From Octopus vulgaris (Eukaryota), in assembly GCA_951406725.2 (NCBI GenBank), contig OX597814.1, forward strand, positions 203,422,001 through 203,486,000: 64,000 nt of DNA. Reading direction: 5' to 3'. This document shows positions 14-26,714 of this stretch, one piece after another. The position numbers and the translations under genes are program-made. Position 1 is the stretch's first letter; every line of letters begins with the position of its first letter. The notes under the pieces were generated by a model, which ran no database searches, was not told the DNA's origin, and saw only the letters and a program-made list of their open reading frames with translations.

Positions 14-3000
14 CCTTCTCTCAGAAATACAGTTAGTCCTTCTCTCAGAAATACAGTTAGTCCTTCTCTCAGAAATACAGTTAATCCTTCTCTCAGAAAT
101 ACAGTTAGTCCTTTTCTCAGAAATACAGTTAGTCCTTCTTTTTGAAATATAGTTAGTCCTTTTCTCAGAAATATAGTAAGTCCCTCTCTTAGAAATACAG
201 TTAGTCCTTCTCTCAGAAATACAGTTAGTCCCTCTGCTAGAAATACAGTAAGTCCTTCTCTCAGTACTACAGTAAGTCCCTCTCTTAGAAATACAGTTAG
301 TCCTTCTCTCAGAAATACAGTTAGTCCCTCTCTTAGAAATACAGTTAGTCCCTCTGCTAGAAATACAGTAAGTCCTTCTCTCAGAAATACAGTTAGTCCC
401 TCTCTTAGAAATACAGTTAGTCCCTCTCTTGGAAATACAGTTAGTCCCACTCTTGGAAATACAGTTAGTCCTTCTCTTAGAAATACAGTTAGTCCCTCTC
501 TTGGAAATACAGTTAGTCCTTCTCTTAGAAATACAGTTAGTACCTCTCTTGGAAATACATTTAGTCCTTCTCTTAAAAATACAGTTAGTCCCTCTCTCAG
601 AAATACAGTTAGTCCTTCTCTCAGAAATACAGTTAGTCCTTTCCTCAGATATACAGTTAGTCCTTCTCTCAGAAATAGTTAGTCCTTCTCTCAGAAATAC
701 AGTTAGTCCTTTCCTCAGATATACAGTTAGTCCTTCTCTCAGAAATAGTTAGTCCTTCTCTCAGAAATACAATTCGTCCTACTCTCAGAAATACAGTTAG
801 TCCCTCTCTTAGAAATACAGTTAGTCCCTCTCTTAGAAATACAGTTAGTCCCTCTCTTAGAAATACAGTTAGTCCTTTTCTCAGAAATACAGATAGTCCT
901 TCTCTCAGAATACAGTTAGCCCTTCTCTCAGAAATACAGTTAGTCCCTCACTCAGAAATACAGTTAGTCCCTCTGCTAGAAATACAGTAAGTCCTTCTCT
1001 CAGAAATACAATTAGTCCCTCTCTTCGAAATACAGTTAGTCCCTCTCTTGGAAATACAGTTAGTCCTTCTCTTAGAAATACAGTTAGTCCCTCTCTTGGA
1101 AATACAGTTAGTCCCTCTTTCAGAAATACAGTTAGTCCTTCTCTCAGAAATACAGTTAGTCCCTCACTCAGAAATACAGTTAGTCCCTCTGCTTAGAAAT
1201 ACAGTAAGTCCTTCTCTCAGAAATACAATTAGTCCCTCTCTTAGAAATACAGTTAGTCCCTCTCTTGGAAATACAGTTAGTCCTTCTCTTAGAAATACAG
1301 TTAGTCCCTCTCTTGGAAATACAGTTAGTCCTTCTCTTAGAAATACAGTTAGTCCTTCTCTTGGAAATACAGTTAGTCCTTCTCTCAGAAATACAGTTAG
1401 TCCTCTCAGAAATACAGTTTGTCCTACTCTCAGAAATACAGTTAGTCCCTCTCTTAGAAATACAGTGAGTCCCTCTCTTAGAAATACAGTTAGTCCTTCT
1501 TTTTGAAATATAGTTAGTCCTTTTCTCAGAAATATAGTAAGTCCTTCTCTTAGAAATACAGTTAGTCCTTCTCTCAGAAATACAGTTAGTCCCTCTGCTA
1601 GAAATACAGTAAGTCCTTCTCTCAGTACTACAGTAAGTCCCTCTCTTAGAAATTCAGTTAGTCCTTCTCTTAGAAATACAGTTAGTCCCTCACTCAGAAA
1701 TACAGTTAGTCCCTCTGCTAGAAATACAGTAAGTCCTTCTCTCAGAAATACAGTTAGTCCCTCTCTTAGAAATACAGTTAGTCCCTCTCTTGGAAATACA
1801 GTTAGTCCTTCTCTTAGAAATACAGTTAGTCCCTCTCTTGGAAATACAGTTAGTCCTTCTCTTAGAAATACAGTTAGTCCCTCTCTTGGAAATACAGTTA
1901 GTCCTTCTCTTAGAAATACAGTTAGTCCTTTCCTCAGATATACAGTTAGTCCCTCTCTTAGAAATACAGTTAGTCCCTCTCTTAGAAATACAGTTAGTCC
2001 TTCTCTCAGAAATACAGTTAGTCCTTCTCTCAGAAATACAGTTAGTCCTTCTCTCAGAAATACAGTTAGTCCTTCTCTCAGAAATACAGTTAGTCCCTCA
2101 CTCAGAAATACAGTTAGTCCCTCTGCTAGAAATACAGTAAGTCCTTCTCTCAGAAATACAATTAGTCCCTCTCTTCGAAATACAGTTAGTCCCTCTCTCA
2201 GAAATACAGTTAGTCCCTCTCTTAGAAATACAGTTAGTCCCTCTCTTGGAAATACAGTTAGTCCCTCTTTCAGAAATACAGTTAGTCCTTCTCTCAGAAA
2301 TACAGTTAGTCCCTCACTCAGAAATACAGTTAGTCCCTCTGCTAGAAATACAGTAAGTCCTTCTCTCAGAAATACAATTAGTCCCTCTCTTAGAAATACA
2401 GTTAGTCCCTCTCTTGGAAATACAGTTAGTCCTTCTCTTAGAAATACAGTTAGTCCCTCTCTTGGAAATACAGTTAGTCCTTCTCTCAGAAATACAGTTA
2501 GTCCTTCTCTCAGAAATACACTTAGTCCTTCTCTCAGAAATACAGTTAGTCCTTCTCAGAAATACAGTCCTTCTTTCAGAAATACAGTTAGTCCTCCTCT
2601 CAGAAATACAGTTAGTCCTTCTCTCAGAAATACAGTTAGTCCTTCTCTCAGAAATACAGTTAGTCCTTCTCTCAGAAATACAGTTAGTCCTTCTCTCAGA
2701 AATACAGTTAGTCCTTCTCTCCCAGAAATACAGTTAGTCCTTCTCTCAGAAATACAGTAGTCCTCTCTAAATACAGTTAGTCCTTCTCTCAGAAATACAG
2801 TTAGTCCTTCTCTCAGAAATACAGTAGTCTTAGTCCTTCTCTTCTCAGAAATACAGTTAGTCCTTCTCTCAGAAATACAGTTAGTCCAATCTCTCAGAAA
2901 TACAGTTAGTCCTTCTCTCAGAAATACAGTTAGTCCTTCTCTCAGAAATACAGTTAGTCCTTCTCTCAGAAATACAGTTAGTCCTTCTCTTAGAAATACA

Positions 3001-5367
3001 GTTAGTCCTTCTCTCAGAAATACAGTTAGTCCTTCTCTCAGAAATACAGTTAGTCCTTCTCTCAGAAATACAGTTAGTCCTTCTCTTAGAAATACAGTTA
3101 GTCCCTCTCTTAGAAATACAGTTAGTCCCTCTCTTAGAAATACAGTTAGTCCCTCTTTCAGAAATACAGTTAGTCCCTCTCTGAGAAATACAGTTAGTCC
3201 TTCCCTCAGAAATACAGTTAGTCCTTCTCTCAGAAATACAGTTAGTCCCTCTCTTGGAAATACAGTTAGTCCCTCTCTCAGAAATACAGTTAGTCCCTCC
3301 CTTAGGAATACAGTTAGTCTCTCTCTCTCTCAGAAATACAGTTAGACCTTCTTTCTGAAATATAGTTAGACCTTCTTTCTGAAATACAGTTAGTCCTTCT
3401 CTCAGAAATACAGTTAGTCCTTCTCTCAGAAATACAGTTAGTCCTTCAGAAATACAGTTATCCTCTCTAGAAATACAGTTAGTCCTTCTCTCAGAAATAC
3501 AGTTAGTCCTTCTCTCAGAAATACAGTTAGTCCTTCTCTCAGAAATACAGTTAGTCCTTCTCTCAGAAATACAGTTAGTCCTTCTCTACAGAAAATACAG
3601 TTAGTCCTTCTCTCAGAAATACAGTTAGTCCTTCTCTCTTAGAAATACAGTTAGTCCTTCTCTCAGAAATACAGTTAGTCCTTCTCTCAGAAATACAGTT
3701 AGTCCTTCTCTCAGAAATACAGTTAGTCCTTCTCTCAGAAATACAGTTAGTCCTTCTCTCAGAAATACAGTTAGTCCTTCTCTCAGAAATACAGTTAGTC
3801 CTTCTCTCAGAAATACAGTTAGTCCTTCTCTCAGAAATACAGCTAGTCCCCCTTCAGAAATACAGTTAGTCCTTCTCTCAGAAATACAGTTAGTCCTTCT
3901 CTCAGAAATACAGTTAGTCCCTCTCTCAGAAATACAGTTAGTCCTTCTCTCAGAAATAAGTTAGTCCTAGAAATACAGTTAGTCCTTCTCTCAGAAATAC
4001 AGTTAGTCCTCTCTTTCAGAAATACAGTTAGTCCTTCTCTCAGAAATACAGTTAGTCCTTCTCTCAGAAATACAGTTAGTCCTTCTCTCAGAAATACAGT
4101 TAGTCCTTCTCTCAGAAATACAGTTAGTCCTTCTCTCAGAAATACAGTTAGTCCTCTCTACAGTAGTCCCTCAGTTAGTCCTCTCTAGAAATACAGTTAG
4201 TACAGTAGTCCTTCTCTCAGAATACAGTTAGTCCTTCTCTCAGAAATACCTTCTCTCAGTTAGTCCTCTCTTAGAAATACAGTTAGTCCCTCTTTCAGAA
4301 ATACAGTTAGTCCCTTCTCTACAGTTAAATACAGTTAGTCCTTCTCTCAGAAATACAGTTAGTCCTTCTCTAGTGCCTCTTTGGAAATACAGAAATACAG
4401 TTAGTTAGTCCCTTCTCTCAGAAATACAGTTAGTCCCTCTCAGTTAGTCCTCTTCAGAAATACAGTTAGTCCCTCCTAGAATACAGTTAGTCCCTCTCTC
4501 AGAAATAGTTAAATACAGTTAGTCCTTCTCTTGTCCTTCTCTCAGAAATACAGTTAGTCCTTCTCTCAGTTAAGATACAGTTAGTCCTCTCTCTTAGTCA
4601 GAAATACAGTTAGTCCTTCTCTCTCAGAAATACAGTTAGTCCTTCTCTCAGAAATACAGTTAGTCCTTCTCTCAGAAATACAGTTAGTCCTTCTCTCAGA
4701 AATACAGTTAGTCCTTCTCTCAGAAATACAGTTAGTCCTTCTCTCAGAAATACAGTTAGTCCTTCTCTCAGAAATACAGTTAGTCCTTCTCTCAGAAATA
4801 CAGTTAGTCCTTCTCTCAGAAATACAGTTACAGTACAGTAGTCCTTCTCTCAGAAATACAGTTAGTCCTTCTCTCAGAAATACAGTTAGTCCTTCTCTCA
4901 GAAATACAGCTAGTCCCTCTCTCAGAAATATAGTTAGTCCTTCTCTCAGAAATACAGTTAGTCCTTCTCTCAGAAATACACTTAGTCCTTCTCTCAGAAA
5001 TACAGTTAGTCCTTCTCTCAGAAATACACTTAGTCCTTCTCTCAGAAATACACTTAGTCCTTCTCTCAGAAATACACTTAGTCCTTCTCTCAGAAATACA
5101 GTTAGTCCTTCTCTCAGAAATACAGTTAGTCCTTCTCTCAGAAATACAGTTCGTCCTTCTCTCAGAAATACAGTTCGTCCTTCTCTCAGAAATACACTTA
5201 GTCCTTCTCTCAGAAATACACTTAGTCCTTCTCTCAGAAATACAGTTAGTCCTTCTCTCAGAAATACAGTTAGTCCGTCTCTCAGAAATACACTTAGTCC
5301 TTCTCTCAGAAATACAGTTCGTCCTTCTCTCAGAAATACACTTAGTCCTTCTCTCAGAAATACAGTT
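14..5367. repeat. 24-bp minisatellite array, consensus AGAAATACAGTTAGTCCTTCTCTC, roughly 220 units
   Basis: Directly visible tandem repeat. The ORF track gives 8-aa periodic translations (EIQLVLLS / RNTVSPSL), confirming the 24-nt period. Probably lies in the long SETD2 intron upstream of 12524. Confidence 0.98.
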
Positions 5368-5642
5368 AATTATTCTCTTAGAAGTGTAGAATATCTATGG
5401 TCAGTGCACACTTTTAGAAACATGGGTATAAGTTTTTATGAATAAGGAAATAAACTGGTAATATATGTTGGTAAATAGTGATAGTATGGTGGAAACTGAT
5501 GGAAATAGTGACATTTAGAAATTTGGGTAAGTTTTGGGAAGAAGAGAACTGAGACATTTTGGAATTGACACTTTACCATCTGAAAAATATAGTTAGTTCT
5601 CATTTCAGAAACAGATCGTCCCAATTTCATTTATGCCATTAC

Positions 5643-17700: not shown

Positions 17701-20700
17701 TTGATCATATGCATACTATTATAACAGTTTGTTTTTACAGCCATATGTTGTTCCTTATGCAAACTGCTTGGTGTTAAATCAGGGTGCAGCCTCTTTGTAA
17801 ACCAAGTAAACTGGAGCAAACAGTGTTATGTGCCTTGTCCACAATCATTACACATTGGCTACTGTGAGGTTTGACTCGTGGCAGATTAATTGATTTCATT
17901 TTCATTTGATAGGTGCTGGCATGGCTGTGTGGTTGAGAAGTTTACTTCCCTACCAAATGGTTTCTGGTTCAGTCCCACTGCATAGTACCTTCAGCAGGTG
18001 TTCTTCTACTATAGCCCTGTTTTGGAAGTTGATTTGGTGGAGAGAAACACCTCAGATCTTTTGTAATCTTATAGAAATTCAAACTAATATTTAGTTAAAT
18101 CAGTTTGACTTTGTTTCACTGTACATTCGTTATAAATAGAAATTTTCATATATTATCTGCAAAATCAATTGTAATGCTCAGCTTATTTATTTATTTTTTC
18201 TTTAGTGGACAGTAAATGGAATGCTGCGAATTGGATTTTTCACCAAAACGTTTATTAGTGCTGGGCAGGAGATGACATTTGATTATCAGTTTGAAAGGTA
18301 AATCTGATATCTAGGTATATTATTTCATTCCTTTGTTACACTACTTAACAAGAGAGTTAACCTGACATATGATGGAGCTAAAGCTTTGATATTAAGCTAG
18401 TACTTTTATCTATTAAAGTCAAGTATGTGTTTCAGTTTTATTATTTAATCAAATATATTACAGTATTATTAAGTAACAAGATCGTTTGACATAAGATCTG
18501 GCTACTGATGCCCTACTCCATTGTATTTAATATTCTTTATTAAATTTTTTTTTAAATATTTTTTTTTGAAGTTCATGAATAATAGAACAAGTAGAAAGAT
18601 ATATTTTTCAACACATAAATACTGAACAGTATATATAAAGGATAAAATCTTTTTAAGAGCAGAAAAATTTGCTGGCAAATTTTTCTGCTCTTAAAAAGAT
18701 TTTATCCTTTATATATACTGTTCAGTATTTACTTGTTGAAAAAAATCTTTCAACTTTCTTTGTTGTAATCATGGTTCTCATAAATGACCACATCTTGATA
18801 GTTTAACATCGACTTAGATCTTTTCTTTTTAAATTCCAAATATATGAATAGTTAGAAAAGTCTTTCAGTGGCATTTTATATTATTTGTGCAGCAAACAAG
18901 CACAAAAATGTCACTGTGGCTCAAGTTGTTGTCGAGGAACAATAGGTGGTAAGAAGAAGTCTACAGTGAAATCCAAGAAGAAAAGTGTTTCCTCAGAAAA
19001 GAAAAAGAAAGAGTTTGAAGATGAATCTGTGAGTTTACTAATTCAAAATATTGTGCTATATTCCACTTTAAAAAATTGTTCTGTTGGATAATTATGGCCA
19101 AGATGATTTCAGAAATAAAAGCTTTTGGTCAAATTACTTAATCTTTTCGTAAAATACCACTTCTCTGATTTATTTCTAATTTGTTACTGGAATATGGGTA
19201 GTCTGGTTTTTTATTTTCCTTTTCTTTATCATAACATTTTTGCTTATAAATAACCAAATAAGTGGTATAACTTAAAGATTAGGAATACATTTGACATTCT
19301 TTAAAAATTAAAATGAAATAATGAATTATTTTATACTAATTTGTTCTCATTTTAATTGGCTAGCCATTTAGTTACAGAGCTTGGTTTGTTGCCTAAAAGC
19401 TGCCCTTGCAATCTCGGCTTATCTATATAGATTGGTTAATGCTTTATAATGTGATTCAAGCAATTCTATCAGAGCCATTAACTCAATTAATTTTATTTGG
19501 ATTTTTGGTACTAATCATGCTTCTAAGTTAAAATATTAATGCTGCTGTGGATATTTAAAAACTCTTAAAATTAATTCACTATTTTTTTTTGGTTTATATT
19601 GTTCTAAAAGCTTCTCTGTAAGCTTTTGTTTAGGTCCCAAGTTCTATTCTACTTTATTATTAGACACAAATATATATGTTATAGATTACAAGGAAGAATA
19701 TTTTTTTATTATTATTTTGGTTTTTATCAGAAACAAAATTTTTATTTTCTAATTTTACCAATGATTTTGATCTGGCCATCCACCAATTGCACAGGTCTTT
19801 AATAATTAAAAATCAACATCACAGATTCTGTCACTGATCAAATATGTTAATTAGCCAAGTACAAAAATATAGGTTGGAGATATAAAATTCTGACTTAAAA
19901 GTTCTAAGTTTCCTTTTGGATACCCTTTTTGTTTGCTTTTCTTTGTTTTTGAAAATTCTAATTTCTGTTTACATTTTCATTCCATTTTTCCTCTTTTTTT
20001 TTTTTTTTGCAATTGAAATTTTCAAATTATTTTTATCATGTCTGGCAAAATTTATTATCTGTTAATTCTTTTTGTAAATTGAATTTTTAAAACCTTTTCT
20101 AAAACAAAAGGTTTTCTAATTTTGTAACTTGAAAAAAAAAAAAGTATTTTATTTTCTTCAAGTTCTGAATTCTAGAACTTTATTTTATTTTACAATGTTC
20201 TGTAACCATGGCTTTCTTCAAATCTAACACTGACAGTGTAGCATCTTATGAAATTTTATGTAGAATGTAATTGATATATTGATTATTGGAATAATATATT
20301 TAAGTGACAACTTAACTGAAATTCATTTTGATGGCTAGTGGAAATAATATTTGTCCAATAAAAGGACTTCTATTGCTTTTTCTTAGCCAAAGTTTCGTCA
20401 AAACTATATTATTTCATAAAGGCTTAATTAGCTTTGTAGTTGTTAAAAAGAAATTATACATGTTTTACCACTAAGTTTAAAATGAGAAAAGAATTAGAAT
20501 AAGAGCATAGTGTTGAGGATATACGTATTTTGTATCTATTGTCTTTGAACTAAAAATACTTAACTCGAATTCTTGCTTTTTTGAGTTGTATAACCAAATT
20601 CCTCTAAATATCTTGAAGTCAGCTGTTCCATCATATGCCTGAAATCAGTTGTTGGAATTCTGTAGAAAGCCTGTGATACTGGAATGGAATTTTCAAAACC

Positions 20701-21112
20701 TTTTCCCCTGACCCTATTTCCAGAATATCCTAAAGCTCAATAAGCAATGGAACAACATGTCGCAGAGTGATGATGATGGTGATGACGGTGACGACAATGG
20801 TGGTGACAACGGTGATGAGGAGGACGACGGCGATGACGAACAAGGCGCCGTTAAGAAGCAACCAGATGGCCAGATAAAACTACTCATGGTAAAATTAGAA
20901 ACTAACCTCCTGCTAGTATTCAGACTAGGCAACAAACTACAGCAGCAGATGTGTCATGTGTCACTAACCATCTGTAGGCTATGATACCTAAATTTCAGGG
21001 GTTCGTTCGCCACCCTTAACCCCCATATAATGTTCAGTCCCTTCCCCAGCTTTCGTTTACTTTTTATATAAAGTGAAAAACTATCAGCTTCTTTGCATTT
21101 CTATTTTCACTT

Positions 21113-21145
<33 letters not shown>

Positions 21146-24100
21146 TTCACTCTATCTTTTCTCTCTCACACACATACATATACATTACTCACACATTACT
21201 GCATATCTAAAAATCTGACTTTAATTATACTAAGTCTTTAAATAATCATGCATGTTGACAGCATTTATACATATTTTCAGTGTATGTATTTATGTGTGTG
21301 TGTTTGTGTGTGTTTATAGACACACAAACACACCCAGATACTTATTGATGTCTATTTGTATGTATTAATTGTTGGATGTTTTCTGTTTTATTAATTTACG
21401 TTTCACATTATCTACTGTCATTTCTACTTTCAGTGTTTTAATTAGTATCCAATTTATTAGAGCACTTTATTAAATTATAATTTTTATTACTTGATTTTGA
21501 GATTCATCATAAATTACTAATAGTTAACATTTTCAAAATCAAAGAAAATGAAGACATTTTAGTAAGATGTTTTTTTCAATTAATCTATTATCCAATTAAT
21601 TAGTTTTATATATAGCCCAAGATTGAATTTTGTTGGGGCTGGTTAATTATTGCCTTAAAGTTGCATTATTGTAGCTTTAATATATTATTATAATTATGGA
21701 GGCAGATATGTTGCATTACCATATATAAATCTCATCATTTAACATATTTTCCATGCTGGTGTGAGGCAGATAGTTCAGTAGGATCCAACAATCCGGAGGA
21801 CTGTGCCAAGCTCTACTATCTGCTTTGGGATGGTTTCTACAGTTAAATGCCTTTCCCAATGCCAACCACTTTAAAGTATACTGGATGCTATTTATGTGAC
21901 GCCAGCACAAGTGAGGTTACCATGTAATAACTCACAAAACTAAGATTCCGCTTGACTAGTATCATAGAGTAGGAGGTAGCTTTGTGCTAGATGTTCAGAA
22001 ATTAAAATATGGTAAGGCAAGAACTAAGTTTTTTGTTGTAGAGGAGATACATAGCTATATGAGGGTGAATGCAGGTAATTGGTGGAGCTGAAAAGAAACT
22101 TAAAGATGATGAGTTGTTAGAGCGTACCCTCAAAGTACAAGAAGGTGACTAGAAGGGAGTGTGGGGATAGAAGATTAGAAGGAGGGGATAAATCTCTGCC
22201 TCACAATTCTGAGGGCCAAAACTTCCTTCTTTATTTTACAGACCATGCCAGAGTGCAAAATAACTGCTGGTAAGATAATGGTTGGCATCAGTACAGGCTT
22301 TCCTCTTTCTTCCTTCTTAGAATATAGTCCTCTATGTAACCAAAAGAGATAATTATCATCTGTGAAGTGGTTTGTGTTGTGGTGAACTGAGCCTGTTTCC
22401 TCTACCATATATCTTTCAATTTCCTTCCTTCTCTCCTATCTTAACAAATATAAGGTTTAAAACCTCTCCAAGAAACCATTGTTATTGTTAGAGATATTGT
22501 GGTGGGGTTGTCAAGCTTTTGGGAAATGAATTTCTCCACCTGAGGCATTTCGTATATTTTGCAAGAACATTGCCAATTTCTTTGTACTTTTTGTTTGCTG
22601 AATTAAGAAAATATTTTCTCTGCTACACTCGTAAAGTATTTTGTCAATATTCTGTTTTAAACTATCCGCTCAATTAAAACAAAAAAAATTCTTTTTTGTC
22701 TCTTGTTTTTGTCTCTGTTATAAAAGTGAATAAATGCTGTCTGATGCTAATGTGTTAATTTATTTTTAAAATAGTTTTCTTGCATTGTAATGATATTCAG
22801 TTTCCCTAGGAAAATTTTCTTTTGTTTTATATAACTTTATATCTATCTTCATGTACATATATATAATATATACAAACACTTATATACATAAAAACTAGAT
22901 TCCTATGAATTTTCCACTTTTTTTAATGATAAAAAATTTTTTTTTAGATCACGTTTAGTGTGATAACTATATTACCTTACCTAATTTCATTAACTTAGCT
23001 CTCTTTCTGCCATCAGGCTTATTGATTTGATTGCAAATCCACAAAATGCCTTTCTGTGTTGCCTTAATATCTTCTTGCCTTAAGGCAAATTATCTGAGTT
23101 TCATTTTGTTTTTCCATTTATAATACTATAGAAAATCTACATTTTAAATGCCTTTCTTTTTCATTTTTCCTTTTCTCTATATCCTGATTTTGCTTTTAGT
23201 TGGAAGAAGAAATGGAACGAATGTCCCAGTTGGAAGGATTAAAGAATAAAGAACATGTACTTAACCTGTGCAGGTTAATGGTTAGAGCAGAAAGTAATGA
23301 CCATCGATTGTCCATATTGCGCATATTGCAGGTAGGTGAATCAGACTTTAAACCTTGTCACAAAAACCAGTCTTGTTTCCAGTAAAAATGGATTTATTTT
23401 ATATATTGTACAACACTCCATCACCATCTTCATTAAATGTCCACTTTTCCATGCTTGCATGGGTTTGATGAAACTCATTGAAGCAGATTTTCTACAGTTG
23501 GATGTTCTTATCATGAAACCGTACCTGTTCCAAGCAAGGTAATATTTTCCCTCGTCCTTTGAACATGAACAATAGCAAGTCATGTTTCATGGAAGATTGC
23601 AGACGAATAACACCATTTCCCCAAGGTGTGGATGGTTCTATGACCAGTAGTTTTGTTTATAGTGTACAAATATCAAGACCTTGGGACACAAACACAGACA
23701 TAGACACACATACATACGTACATTCACACACACACACACACACACCTGGCTTTTTGGTTTCCATTTAACATACTCTCTCATAAGGCATTGGTCAACTCTT
23801 GGCAGTTACCCTAGCTGCAATACAGTGGTATTGAACGCAGAGCCATGTAGCTGTAAAGCAAGCCTCTTGGCCACACAGCCTTGTCTTATGTCAGTTGTTG
23901 CTGCTACAAAAAAATTATGAAGTAAAATGGATTCTATCATGATATCATATTTTCTGAATTTTTATCTATAAATAATCTGTCTTTCATTTTGATCTGTTTC
24001 TGTTTCATTCAACTTTTTTTCCTCCTTTCTCATTCTTAGGGCACAAATGAGCAGGCTTGTTTGCGTCTATTCTTGGACTATCATGGCCTACCTTTACTGT

Positions 24101-26714
24101 GGAGCTGGATGGCTGATATTGGTGATGGGGCTCCCTATTTAAAATTACAGGTATTATTTGCTGTTTATAGCTATAAATATATTTTTATATTATATGTAAT
24201 GGGTTCTAATAAGCATTGCAATAATATGAAACCCTTTTATTTCTTTTGTAGATCTTGGACACTTTGAAGATGCTTCCCATAACTAACAAGACAATTCTGC
24301 AAGAAAGTAAAATTTTACCTATGGTTTTAAAATGGGCTACTGAACTTAAATTGACGGCAGATCCCGAAATTGAAACAGAACAAAGCAATGATAATTCGTC
24401 ACAAGCTGGCACTCCTTCATCAGTGGCAAGTCGAGATGAACGACCACCGAAGAAGAAGGTTAAATTTGCTGACGAAACTAGTTCGGACAGTGAAATGTCA
24501 GAGTGTAGCCGGTTGAGCGGCATGATATATGTCAATGAACCTACAACTAAAAATGGACTGAATGAAGTTGCCGACAGCTCTGATATGACATATACAGATT
24601 ATTCTACCCCAGGAGGAAATTTGTACATAGACGATTTAGATGAAACCAGATCTTCTAAATCACCTTCTAGTGGAGTGCCTAAAAGTGGAATTCTTATTAA
24701 ACCAGAACTGCAAAAAGAGTTATCAAGTGAATCTTCCTCTTCACCTGTTGTTGACGACAAAATCCAGTCTAATGAGGCTGAATCTTCCTCTCCAGATATA
24801 CTTGAGAAATCAACGAAAGAAAAGTCAGAAGACGATACTTTAACAAAAGACGATGACAGCAGCAATGAGGTCAAGGTAGCAGCGGACGAGAAGAACTTTG
24901 ATTCAAGCAAGTTGTCATCAGTGGTTTCTCTCGCCACTGACCTACTCAAGCACTGGAGTGATTTAAAGGTAACACTTTAAGTAAACATTTAAAAGAACTT
25001 GTTTTAATGTTACATCACAGGCATGGTTGTTTGGAGAAATAGGCATGGCTGTATGGTTAAAAAGTTTGCTTCCTGACTATACGGTTTGGTTTCAGTCCAG
25101 CAGCAGAGTACATAGGGCAAGTCACTTCTACCACAACCTTGGGCCAATCAAAGCTTTGTCTGAAACTGAAAGAAGCCTATTGTGTATAGTTGTGTGTGTG
25201 TGCATGCACCTGTATATGTGTGTTGACGTTCGCACTCTATAAAAGTTGCTGACTGTGAGCAATTTTGTTGTCGCTTCTTTCAACTAATTGTCCACTCACT
25301 TCATTCCTATGAAGATGTATGAAACAGGAGGTCCTTTATTTGAAAAACAGATAAAGGTTGGCAACAGGAGGACAGCCAGCTAAAAGGATACTGATCTAAC
25401 CCATGAAATGGGGGGAAATTGAGAATAGAAACAAACGAAGTTCAGTGGCTAAAAGGTACTATGTAAACAGATTATTCTTATTAAGGAAAAAAACCCAAGG
25501 TGATGAGCTGGAGGAATTGTTAGCATATTAAACAAACTGTTTGGCAGCCTTTCTTCCACCTCTTTCTATTCTATGTTCAGATGCCACCAAGGTCAACTTT
25601 GCTTTTCATCCCCTTGGGATCAATAAAAGAAGTACTAGTTCAGTACTTGGGTTGGTGTAATCGACTAGCCCCTCCCCTGAAATTTCAGGCCTTATGCCTA
25701 TAGTAGAAATAATTGTTAATAATAAATGTATTGTGTGTGTGTGTGTGAATGTCTGTAATCTATAAATGAACTTGTATGTATAGGAGATCCATCCTGTAAC
25801 ATTCTGAAAGAAGCTCATGTACTCCGTTGCTTGTGCTATTAACTTCTACATCAAGCTAACAAAAGAGCATCTTTGTAGGTGCGTAATTTGCTAAAGAATA
25901 GCAGCTGAGTTCCCTTGAAACCACACCTTGCAAGTTTAAAATAAGAAGGACACATCAAATAATGTAGCCCTAGATACATTGAATTGAAAATAAAATGGGG
26001 CTAATCATTGCAGGGTTTCTTTGATCAGGGCCGACCTTGACCAAACAGACTTCTGTATCATCATTTCACAATCTATGCCCCATGCTGATAAAGAAACTTA
26101 TGCATTTTCTTTATATGTGCATAATGTTTGGAACTGAATGCAGCTTGTTTTTGAAAAGCAACAATTATTTTTACTAATTAGGTGTAAGAGAGTAGTTTGT
26201 TTATTTAGTCACTGGACTTATGTTAGTAAGTCAAATGTGTTTGTACACATGTACATAGTTGTGTGTGTGTTGAATTATTTTTGAAGCTGAAAATATTTAT
26301 TCAGGAGTTTGAGTTTTGGTGTTTAACACTTTATAAGCATTTGAAATGTGGTGCACACAAGGCTCAAGGCTTTGAGCCACACCTGGGGTGTTCCCAGCTT
26401 CAAAAATAATAAATCATTTAAACTCCGTGTTGTGAGCTATTTTTTTTGTTGTAAACCCATACACACCCACACAAAAATACTTAATGTCTTTTTGTTTTTT
26501 TTTAACAGGAAGTTTTCAAAATCCCAAAGAAAGAAAAGGTTGAAGAGCGGAAAAGAACAGAAAGAGAATTAGGCAAGTTTATAACTTTTAATTGTAATTA
26601 AACTGATTGCTTCTCAGCAAATATTCAGCTTTTTTATTTTCTATTTTAAATACATATATCTTTTGTATTCAAAACTGTAATTGTTCTTTTCCTTCCTTCA
26701 AACAAGTAAATTAT

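Follow-up and report, generated by a model that had tools for sequence, protein, structure and literature searches.

An optional acidic exon between the SET and autoinhibitory domains of SETD2 in octopus and cuttlefish

The SETD2 gene of Octopus vulgaris contains a cassette exon of 165 nt, inserted between the exons for the Lys-rich post-SET tail and for the autoinhibitory domain (AID). It lies in a window of 64,000 nt, the whole stretch analysed here (assembly GCA_951406725.2, contig OX597814.1, positions 203,422,001 to 203,486,000 of the forward strand; coordinates below are those of the window). It is virtually certain that this exon exists, that its use is optional and that coleoids have conserved it. 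By analogy to an acidic insertion in human SETD2, the acidic peptide it encodes likely tunes the engagement of SETD2 with nucleosomes.

Both forms of the transcript are seen in public sequencing runs. Twenty-four runs were listed, none of them recorded as RNA. Twenty of these, from 11 studies and 7 coded organisms, hold at least half of 21 sampled words of the region 20690–20920, and the runs X22–X24 contain next to none of the sampled exon words. The contigs of four runs (X13, X8, X10 and X21), which bear no library or tissue labels, were examined. They show GT..AG joints at the neighbouring SETD2 introns and depth in 13, 13, 16 and 13 of 30 bins. Because of these joints and the empty intron bins, the four runs are taken as RNA. 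The original prediction of a regulated exon at this site named the junctions by which it could be checked. The inclusion junctions 19028>20724 and 20888>23200, both GT..AG, are present in X13, X8 and X10, which represent organisms B, C and D and three studies, and the skipping junction 19028>23200 is found in all four runs. X21 contains the skipped form only, in one contig of 4608 nt that goes straight across the exon site at a depth of 29.7; X13, which has the same sample code, contains both forms. Inclusion depths in the contigs are close to those of the skipped form. Rough inclusion shares across the four runs are 0.36, 0, 0.46 and 0.59, to be read with the reservation that the depth of contigs measures inclusion poorly and that rare variants are lost from them. 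The inclusion ratio varies between runs.

The same exon is present in cuttlefish. SETD2 of Acanthosepion/Sepia pharaonis is annotated with (CAE1308226.1) and without (CAE1308227.1) an insert of 56 residues at the same junction, and the frame is kept there as it is here. The skip between the same flanking exons is seen in cuttlefish P0003 and P0005. Between octopus and cuttlefish, the first 17 residues of the exon are identical at 16 positions and the last 8 residues at all 8, compared with 36 of 45 in the upstream constitutive exon; the exon ends are thus conserved more than the adjacent constitutive exon. The acidic middle is reshuffled, with charge and length kept (17 acidic residues in octopus and 19 in cuttlefish, both with an isoelectric point, pI, of 4.05). 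Passages of PMC9068888 place the split between octopuses and decapodiforms at ~275 million years ago. Both inclusion junctions, the skipping junction, a kept frame and an ortholog in a distant relative, by which a cassette exon is recognised, were all found.

If the site were not an exon, it should be a decayed GAT/GAC microsatellite with chance splice flanks, or splicing noise. The middle of the exon does look like microsatellites: in a search of the 2.8-Gb genome assembly, the GAY tract alone gives 89 weaker matches elsewhere. Exact junctions in three studies, at depths near those of the skipped form, and the orthologous annotated insert of cuttlefish refute this explanation, which retains practically no probability. 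In the same search, the non-repeat parts of the exon and its flanks match their own locus only. An origin from a transposon or a retrocopy is rejected on this ground, and the single-copy match makes it unlikely that this assembly contains a processed copy. In the upstream 1695 nt, described before as lacking a recognisable SINE, no repeat family was found; the own-genome search, which skips very common words, gave a single match of 36 nt there. The exon also stands out as the GC- and CpG-richer island that had been described, with a GC content of 0.48 and 10 CpG in 165 nt against 0.25 and 5 CpG in 1572 nt upstream. The GC contents of its flanks are 0.40 and 0.44.

That the host gene is SETD2 follows from the exons of the window, which by tblastn cover cuttlefish SETD2 from the AWS region (residue 184) through to its C-terminal end. 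The matched cuttlefish protein carries PF17907, PF00856, PF00397 and PF08236, and its E-value against human SETD2 is 6.7e-203. AWS-SET-post-SET, AID, WW and SRI are arranged in this order, as expected of SETD2/Set2, and the best match of the predicted model is SETD2. The exon is phase 0/0 within the phase-0 intron 19029–23199 and has no stop in its 165 nt, so the frame is kept upon inclusion. Its placement between the Lys-rich tail and the AID agrees with the exon edges and with the alignment to the human linker. As the original prediction states for human SETD2, no such insert is seen in the human SETD2 chain of solved structures.

The positions of the splicing signals given in the original prediction (CTGAC at 20708, the end of CAG at 20723, the 165-nt frame, the donor at 20889, ACTAAC at 20901 and 20963, and TGCATG at 21249) are all correct. 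CTGAC is not established as the branch point, because its A is only 13 nt before the exon and the window contains 47 copies. The donor was called weak. It matches MAG/GTRAGT at 6 of 9 positions, the lowest score in the gene, but it is not uniquely weak: 4 of the 15 SETD2 donors, including the upstream one, have this score.

Contigs cross the donor into the intron in two of the four runs, X10 at 20859–21011 (depth 8.5, vs 5.2 for the spliced form) and X13 at 20888–21050 (depth 2.7). Upon such read-through past 20889, the frame remains open for 31 codons until a stop at 20982 (window 20889–20984). AATAAA at 22729 and ATTAAA at 21469, 22001 and 22673 are possible ends for a short transcript. It can be speculated that the exon acts mainly on the RNA level. 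The often unspliced donor would set the amount of full-length SETD2 through a detained intron or decay, or would give a SET-only protein without AID, WW and SRI, and the insert itself would be nearly neutral. Besides the read-through and its stop, the intron cover of X10, which is in the downstream intron only, fits this idea. So do the differences in organism C: the exon has 0 in 165 nt, the intron pieces have 11 in 311 nt (Fisher P 0.01 against the exon) and the constitutive exons 8 in 450 nt (P 0.12). However, among the forms that include the exon, the fully spliced in-frame one predominates in X8 and X13, and cuttlefish preserves the frame, the charge and the end residues. The read-through contigs may also be pre-mRNA; in X8 and X21 the upstream intron is covered instead. 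This role on the RNA level is improbable.

The two ACTAAC hexamers downstream of the exon, at +13 and +75, are candidate sites for QKI/STAR proteins. They are two of the nine plus-strand copies in the window, and none of the other 14 SETD2 donors has one in its first 100 nt. The enrichment of the pair has a P of ~1e-4 by the window rate and 1.4e-3 by shuffling, for a motif chosen post hoc; shuffled sequence repeats ~1.2 hexamers of some kind. Organisms B and D, in which both copies are unchanged, are close relatives, so this conservation covers a short distance. QKI bound downstream favours exon inclusion, according to passages of PMC9786888. A STAR dimerisation domain is present in the genome. 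No UAAY half-site, as defined in a passage of PMC9786888, was found by eye within 20 nt of either ACTAAC core, which counts against such control. Control by QKI can be called plausible, if not quite probable, because no half-site is within 20 nt and the DNA compared came from close relatives only. ACTAAT at 19037–19042, 8 nt past the upstream donor, is the sole other ACTAAY within 100 nt of any of the 15 donors, and may share in the same control. Control of Rbfox type, proposed from TGCATG, is unsupported: the single copy at +361 corresponds to chance (P ~0.15), and such a site within 400 nt is present in 4 of 15 introns.

By alignment, the junction corresponds in the human protein to where the SET-AID linker ends, directly ahead of the AID. 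The human SETD2 structure from cryo-electron microscopy has only 20 unstructured residues between the last modelled SET residue and the helical AID (PMC12572195). In octopus, inclusion changes the linker from 30 residues (11 K/R and 5 D/E, net +6) to 85 residues (16 K/R and 22 D/E, net −6). An AlphaFold model was made of the cuttlefish long form from the C-terminal part of SET to the AID, without AWS and the start of SET. The first 10 exon residues are modelled as a low-confidence helix (predicted local distance difference test, pLDDT, 53–58) with no confident packing on the AID. The acidic middle is disordered and without secondary structure (pLDDT 48–59). The last 8 residues run into AID helix 1 (block mean 89), which becomes 8 residues longer; in the model of a mussel protein without insert, AID helix 1 begins at the junction. 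What the original prediction missed is that the conserved ends are not acidic and are predicted to be helices, with the final 8 residues forming a predicted extension of AID helix 1. A helix swap between the first exon helix and the last AID helix, considered for their loose L-x-K-x-W likeness, was dropped; in the model, the native helix stays in place with high confidence and the exon helix has no packing.

Human SETD2 became more active and bound nucleosomes better once the acidic insertion (pI 4.2) had been deleted from its AID, and the binding between AID and SET was salt-sensitive (PMC12572195). The yeast catalytic domain and AID are in direct contact, and Spt6 releases them, according to parts of PMC13228609. 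Because the human insertion lowers activity and nucleosome binding, the exon might supply a second acidic decoy beside the Lys-rich tail, which would dampen nucleosome engagement and leave the long form more tightly gated. This is the explanation we tentatively prefer, although we rate it somewhat short of probable. The acidic tract would fold back on the Lys-rich tail and the basic faces of the SET domain and compete with nucleosomal DNA, as the human AID suggests by analogy. The long form would then be gated more tightly by Pol II and SPT6. With its weak donor, the exon would be skipped by default, and binding of a QKI-type protein to the ACUAAC pair downstream would lead to its inclusion in some cell types.

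Several facts weigh against the acidic decoy. The exon is highly acidic (pI 4.05) and predicted to be disordered, but it precedes AID helix 1 and is not inside the AID bundle, and the insertion tested in human is inside the AID, not before it. A long low-confidence insertion inside the AID is also kept in cephalopods. Only one of the 44 alignment rows of the AlphaFold model contains the insert, and AWS and the SET start were left out of it. Five SETD2 proteins of leaf-beetle type (P0044, P0054, P0059, P0068 and P0072) have linkers of 94–105 residues with net charges from −12 to −20 and no sign of being optional, and several post-SET linkers of mites and crustaceans are net acidic. These facts indicate that an acidic linker is tolerated, and the leaf-beetle linkers, as far as their sequences go, argue for tuning and not for an off-switch. 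Furthermore, charge alone leaves the near-invariant hydrophobic ends of the exon unexplained, and a longer tether could loosen autoinhibition instead. The acidic linkers of leaf beetles are possibly a convergent change.

The last point can be extended to an opposite role, in which the exon is a spacer that relieves inhibition. The tether is nearly tripled, from 30 to 85 residues, and AID helix 1 is re-capped; SET could escape more easily, need less SPT6, or act on other substrates such as tubulin. In the cryo-electron microscopy structure, the short linker of 20 residues keeps the AID beside the SET domain (PMC12572195), and tubulin and actin are also methylated by SETD2, according to a passage of PMC9167812. 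A spacer, however, needs neither a pI of 4 in two lineages nor near-invariant ends. The isolated domains bind in trans in human (PMC12572195) and in yeast (parts of PMC13228609), so a longer tether may not by itself separate them. We consider this role unlikely.

Another possible role is that of a docking module. Its conserved N-terminal helix and Ser-acidic residues would bind another protein, such as a histone dimer, an elongation factor or a kinase, and give SETD2 a new partner in some cells. The identity of 16 of 17 residues over ~275 million years, in a predicted loose helix without confident packing on the AID, is in favor of this. The serines directly before the acidic run also resemble sites of acidophilic kinases. 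On the other hand, 117 of the 119 proteins compared have no similar motif. The conservation of the ends could also reflect splicing signals in the RNA. Docking appears marginally less probable still than the spacer.

The acidic decoy could also be one part of a wider splicing switch, evolved in coleoid cephalopods on the very enzyme that writes H3K36me3. A QKI-driven, cell-type-specific exon would rebuild the SET-AID hinge with a docking helix, an acidic decoy and a longer helix 1, and would reset gating or substrate choice, for example, nucleosome versus tubulin in neurons. All these parts together are doubtful. If they proved true, nature would have provided a switchable probe for SETD2 autoinhibition in metazoans.

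The end motifs of the insert are seen in two of the 119 proteins compared, those of the window and of cuttlefish. The exon is likely coleoid-specific on this comparison, which is no proof because the set is mostly arthropod, contains one named bivalve and usually has one isoform per cluster. The 55-residue exon alone as a query gave none among 573 candidates, none among representatives of 50% clusters and none among 595 pattern matches in metagenome contigs; the known cuttlefish holder was missed as well, so these blanks are uninformative on absence. The cuttlefish database entry already contains the exon sequence, unremarked. No description in print was found in the literature searched, whose coverage excludes most subscription journals. 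SETD2 does not occur in the main text of PMC9699675 and PMC9068888 or in three supplementary files of PMC9699675, and the isoform annotation in supplementary file 2 of PMC9699675 may list the exon. No such isoform is mentioned in passages of the SETD2 reviews PMC9167812 and PMC9116022.

Other variants were observed in the proteins compared. Between two SETD2 isoforms of the crab Eriocheir sinensis, P0115 and P0064, there is a difference of 3 residues where the linker meets the AID, at the same junction, which suggests an ancient intron position with alternative use in other protostomes. In the scorpion Centruroides, P0027/P0091 and P0090 differ by a duplication of 10 residues just before this junction, in one species, either a real variant or an assembly error. 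Isoform pairs of horseshoe-crab SETD2 differ by 34 residues at the N-terminus, not at the linker-AID junction. Relative to P0003, cuttlefish P0005 and P0006 have an aberrant AWS stretch at residues ~187–264, probably from a frameshift in the annotation or the assembly. In the window, the SETD2 intron at 26573 appears from its sequence to begin with GC (TAG/GCAAGT), as a GC-AG intron. A satellite array of 24-bp units occupies ~5.4 kb (14–5383) upstream of the matched SETD2 exons. The features around the cassette exon are listed in Table 1.

Table 1. Features of the SETD2 cassette exon and its surroundings in the window.
Feature	Position	Strand	Evidence or remark
Constitutive SETD2 exon upstream: post-SET cysteines, Lys-rich tail, phase 0 end	18893..19028	+	tblastn to cuttlefish SETD2; contigs in 4/4 runs
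Upstream intron, AT-rich, ACTAAT at 19037 just past donor	19029..20723	+	joint 19028>20724
Cassette acceptor: CTGAC, C-rich pyrimidine tract, CAG	20700..20723	+	used in 3/4 runs
Cassette exon, 165 nt in frame, 55 residues, 17 D/E, 5 K/R, pI 4.05	20724..20888	+	
N-terminal 17 codons, conserved; first 10 residues predicted helical, low confidence	20724..20774	+	
Acidic D/G/N/E tract on imperfect GAY/GGY repeat, predicted disordered	20769..20840	+	
Last 8 codons, conserved; predicted extension of AID helix 1	20865..20888	+	
Weak 5' splice site GTAAAA (ATG/GTAAAA)	20889..20894	+	spliced in 3/4 runs, read-through contigs in 2/4
ACTAAC, candidate QKI/STAR site 1 (+13)	20901..20906	+	unchanged in contigs of organisms B, D
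ACTAAC, candidate QKI/STAR site 2 (+75)	20963..20968	+	unchanged in contigs of organisms B, D
TGCATG (Rbfox-type), chance level	21249..21254	+	
Downstream constitutive exon, start of helical AID	23200..23331	+	contigs, alignment to human, models

The structural work of 2025–2026 leaves open how the autoinhibition of SETD2 is relieved, a question to which the SET-AID linker of 20 residues is central. At precisely this linker, one lineage has retained, for ~275 million years, an insert that is optional and reverses the charge. Nucleosome assays and co-transcriptional assays already exist in which the two natural forms are directly comparable. Should inclusion be specific to cell types, the H3K36me3 output of cephalopods would be set by splicing.

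Cassette exons of histone methyltransferases are already known. Two conserved ones in histone lysine methyltransferases, exon 10 of G9A and exon 3 of SUV39H2 (Mauger et al. 2015, passages of PMC4330376), have inclusion levels that vary between tissues. These enzymes act on H3K9, and neither exon is in a SET-AID linker, as far as these passages describe them. They also report that SUV39H2 exon 3 decides stability, localisation and activity, and that G9A exon 10 leaves activity unchanged; the latter is a caution for the case of SETD2. With exons activated by QKI, such as Capzb exon 9, the octopus exon shares a weak donor and ACUAAY in the near downstream intron. It differs from those described in passages of PMC9786888 in having no half-site within 20 nt and in being a candidate QKI target.

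The exon itself has a counterpart in the cuttlefish pair CAE1308226.1/CAE1308227.1, in which one annotated form carries it at the same junction and the other lacks it. The counterpart differs in length (56 vs 55 residues) and in its reshuffled acidic middle, and the pair consists of database entries only, both with an aberrant AWS stretch relative to CAE1308229.1, which marks their annotation as imperfect. The leaf-beetle linkers are likewise net acidic, 94–105 residues long and between post-SET and AID. Their acidic block is before the basic tail, and they have no motif in common with the exon; no shorter isoform was seen, and isoforms were not looked up. The acidic insertion of the human AID (Walshe et al. 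2025, PMC12572195) is similar in being disordered, acidic (pI 4.2 vs 4.05), in cis to SET, and in having serines in an acidic context. It has ~170 residues, is inside the AID and is not described as optional, whereas the cephalopod exon has 55 residues, is optional, precedes the AID and has conserved ends predicted to be helical. The exon may work like the acidic insertion of human SETD2, but it is not that element.

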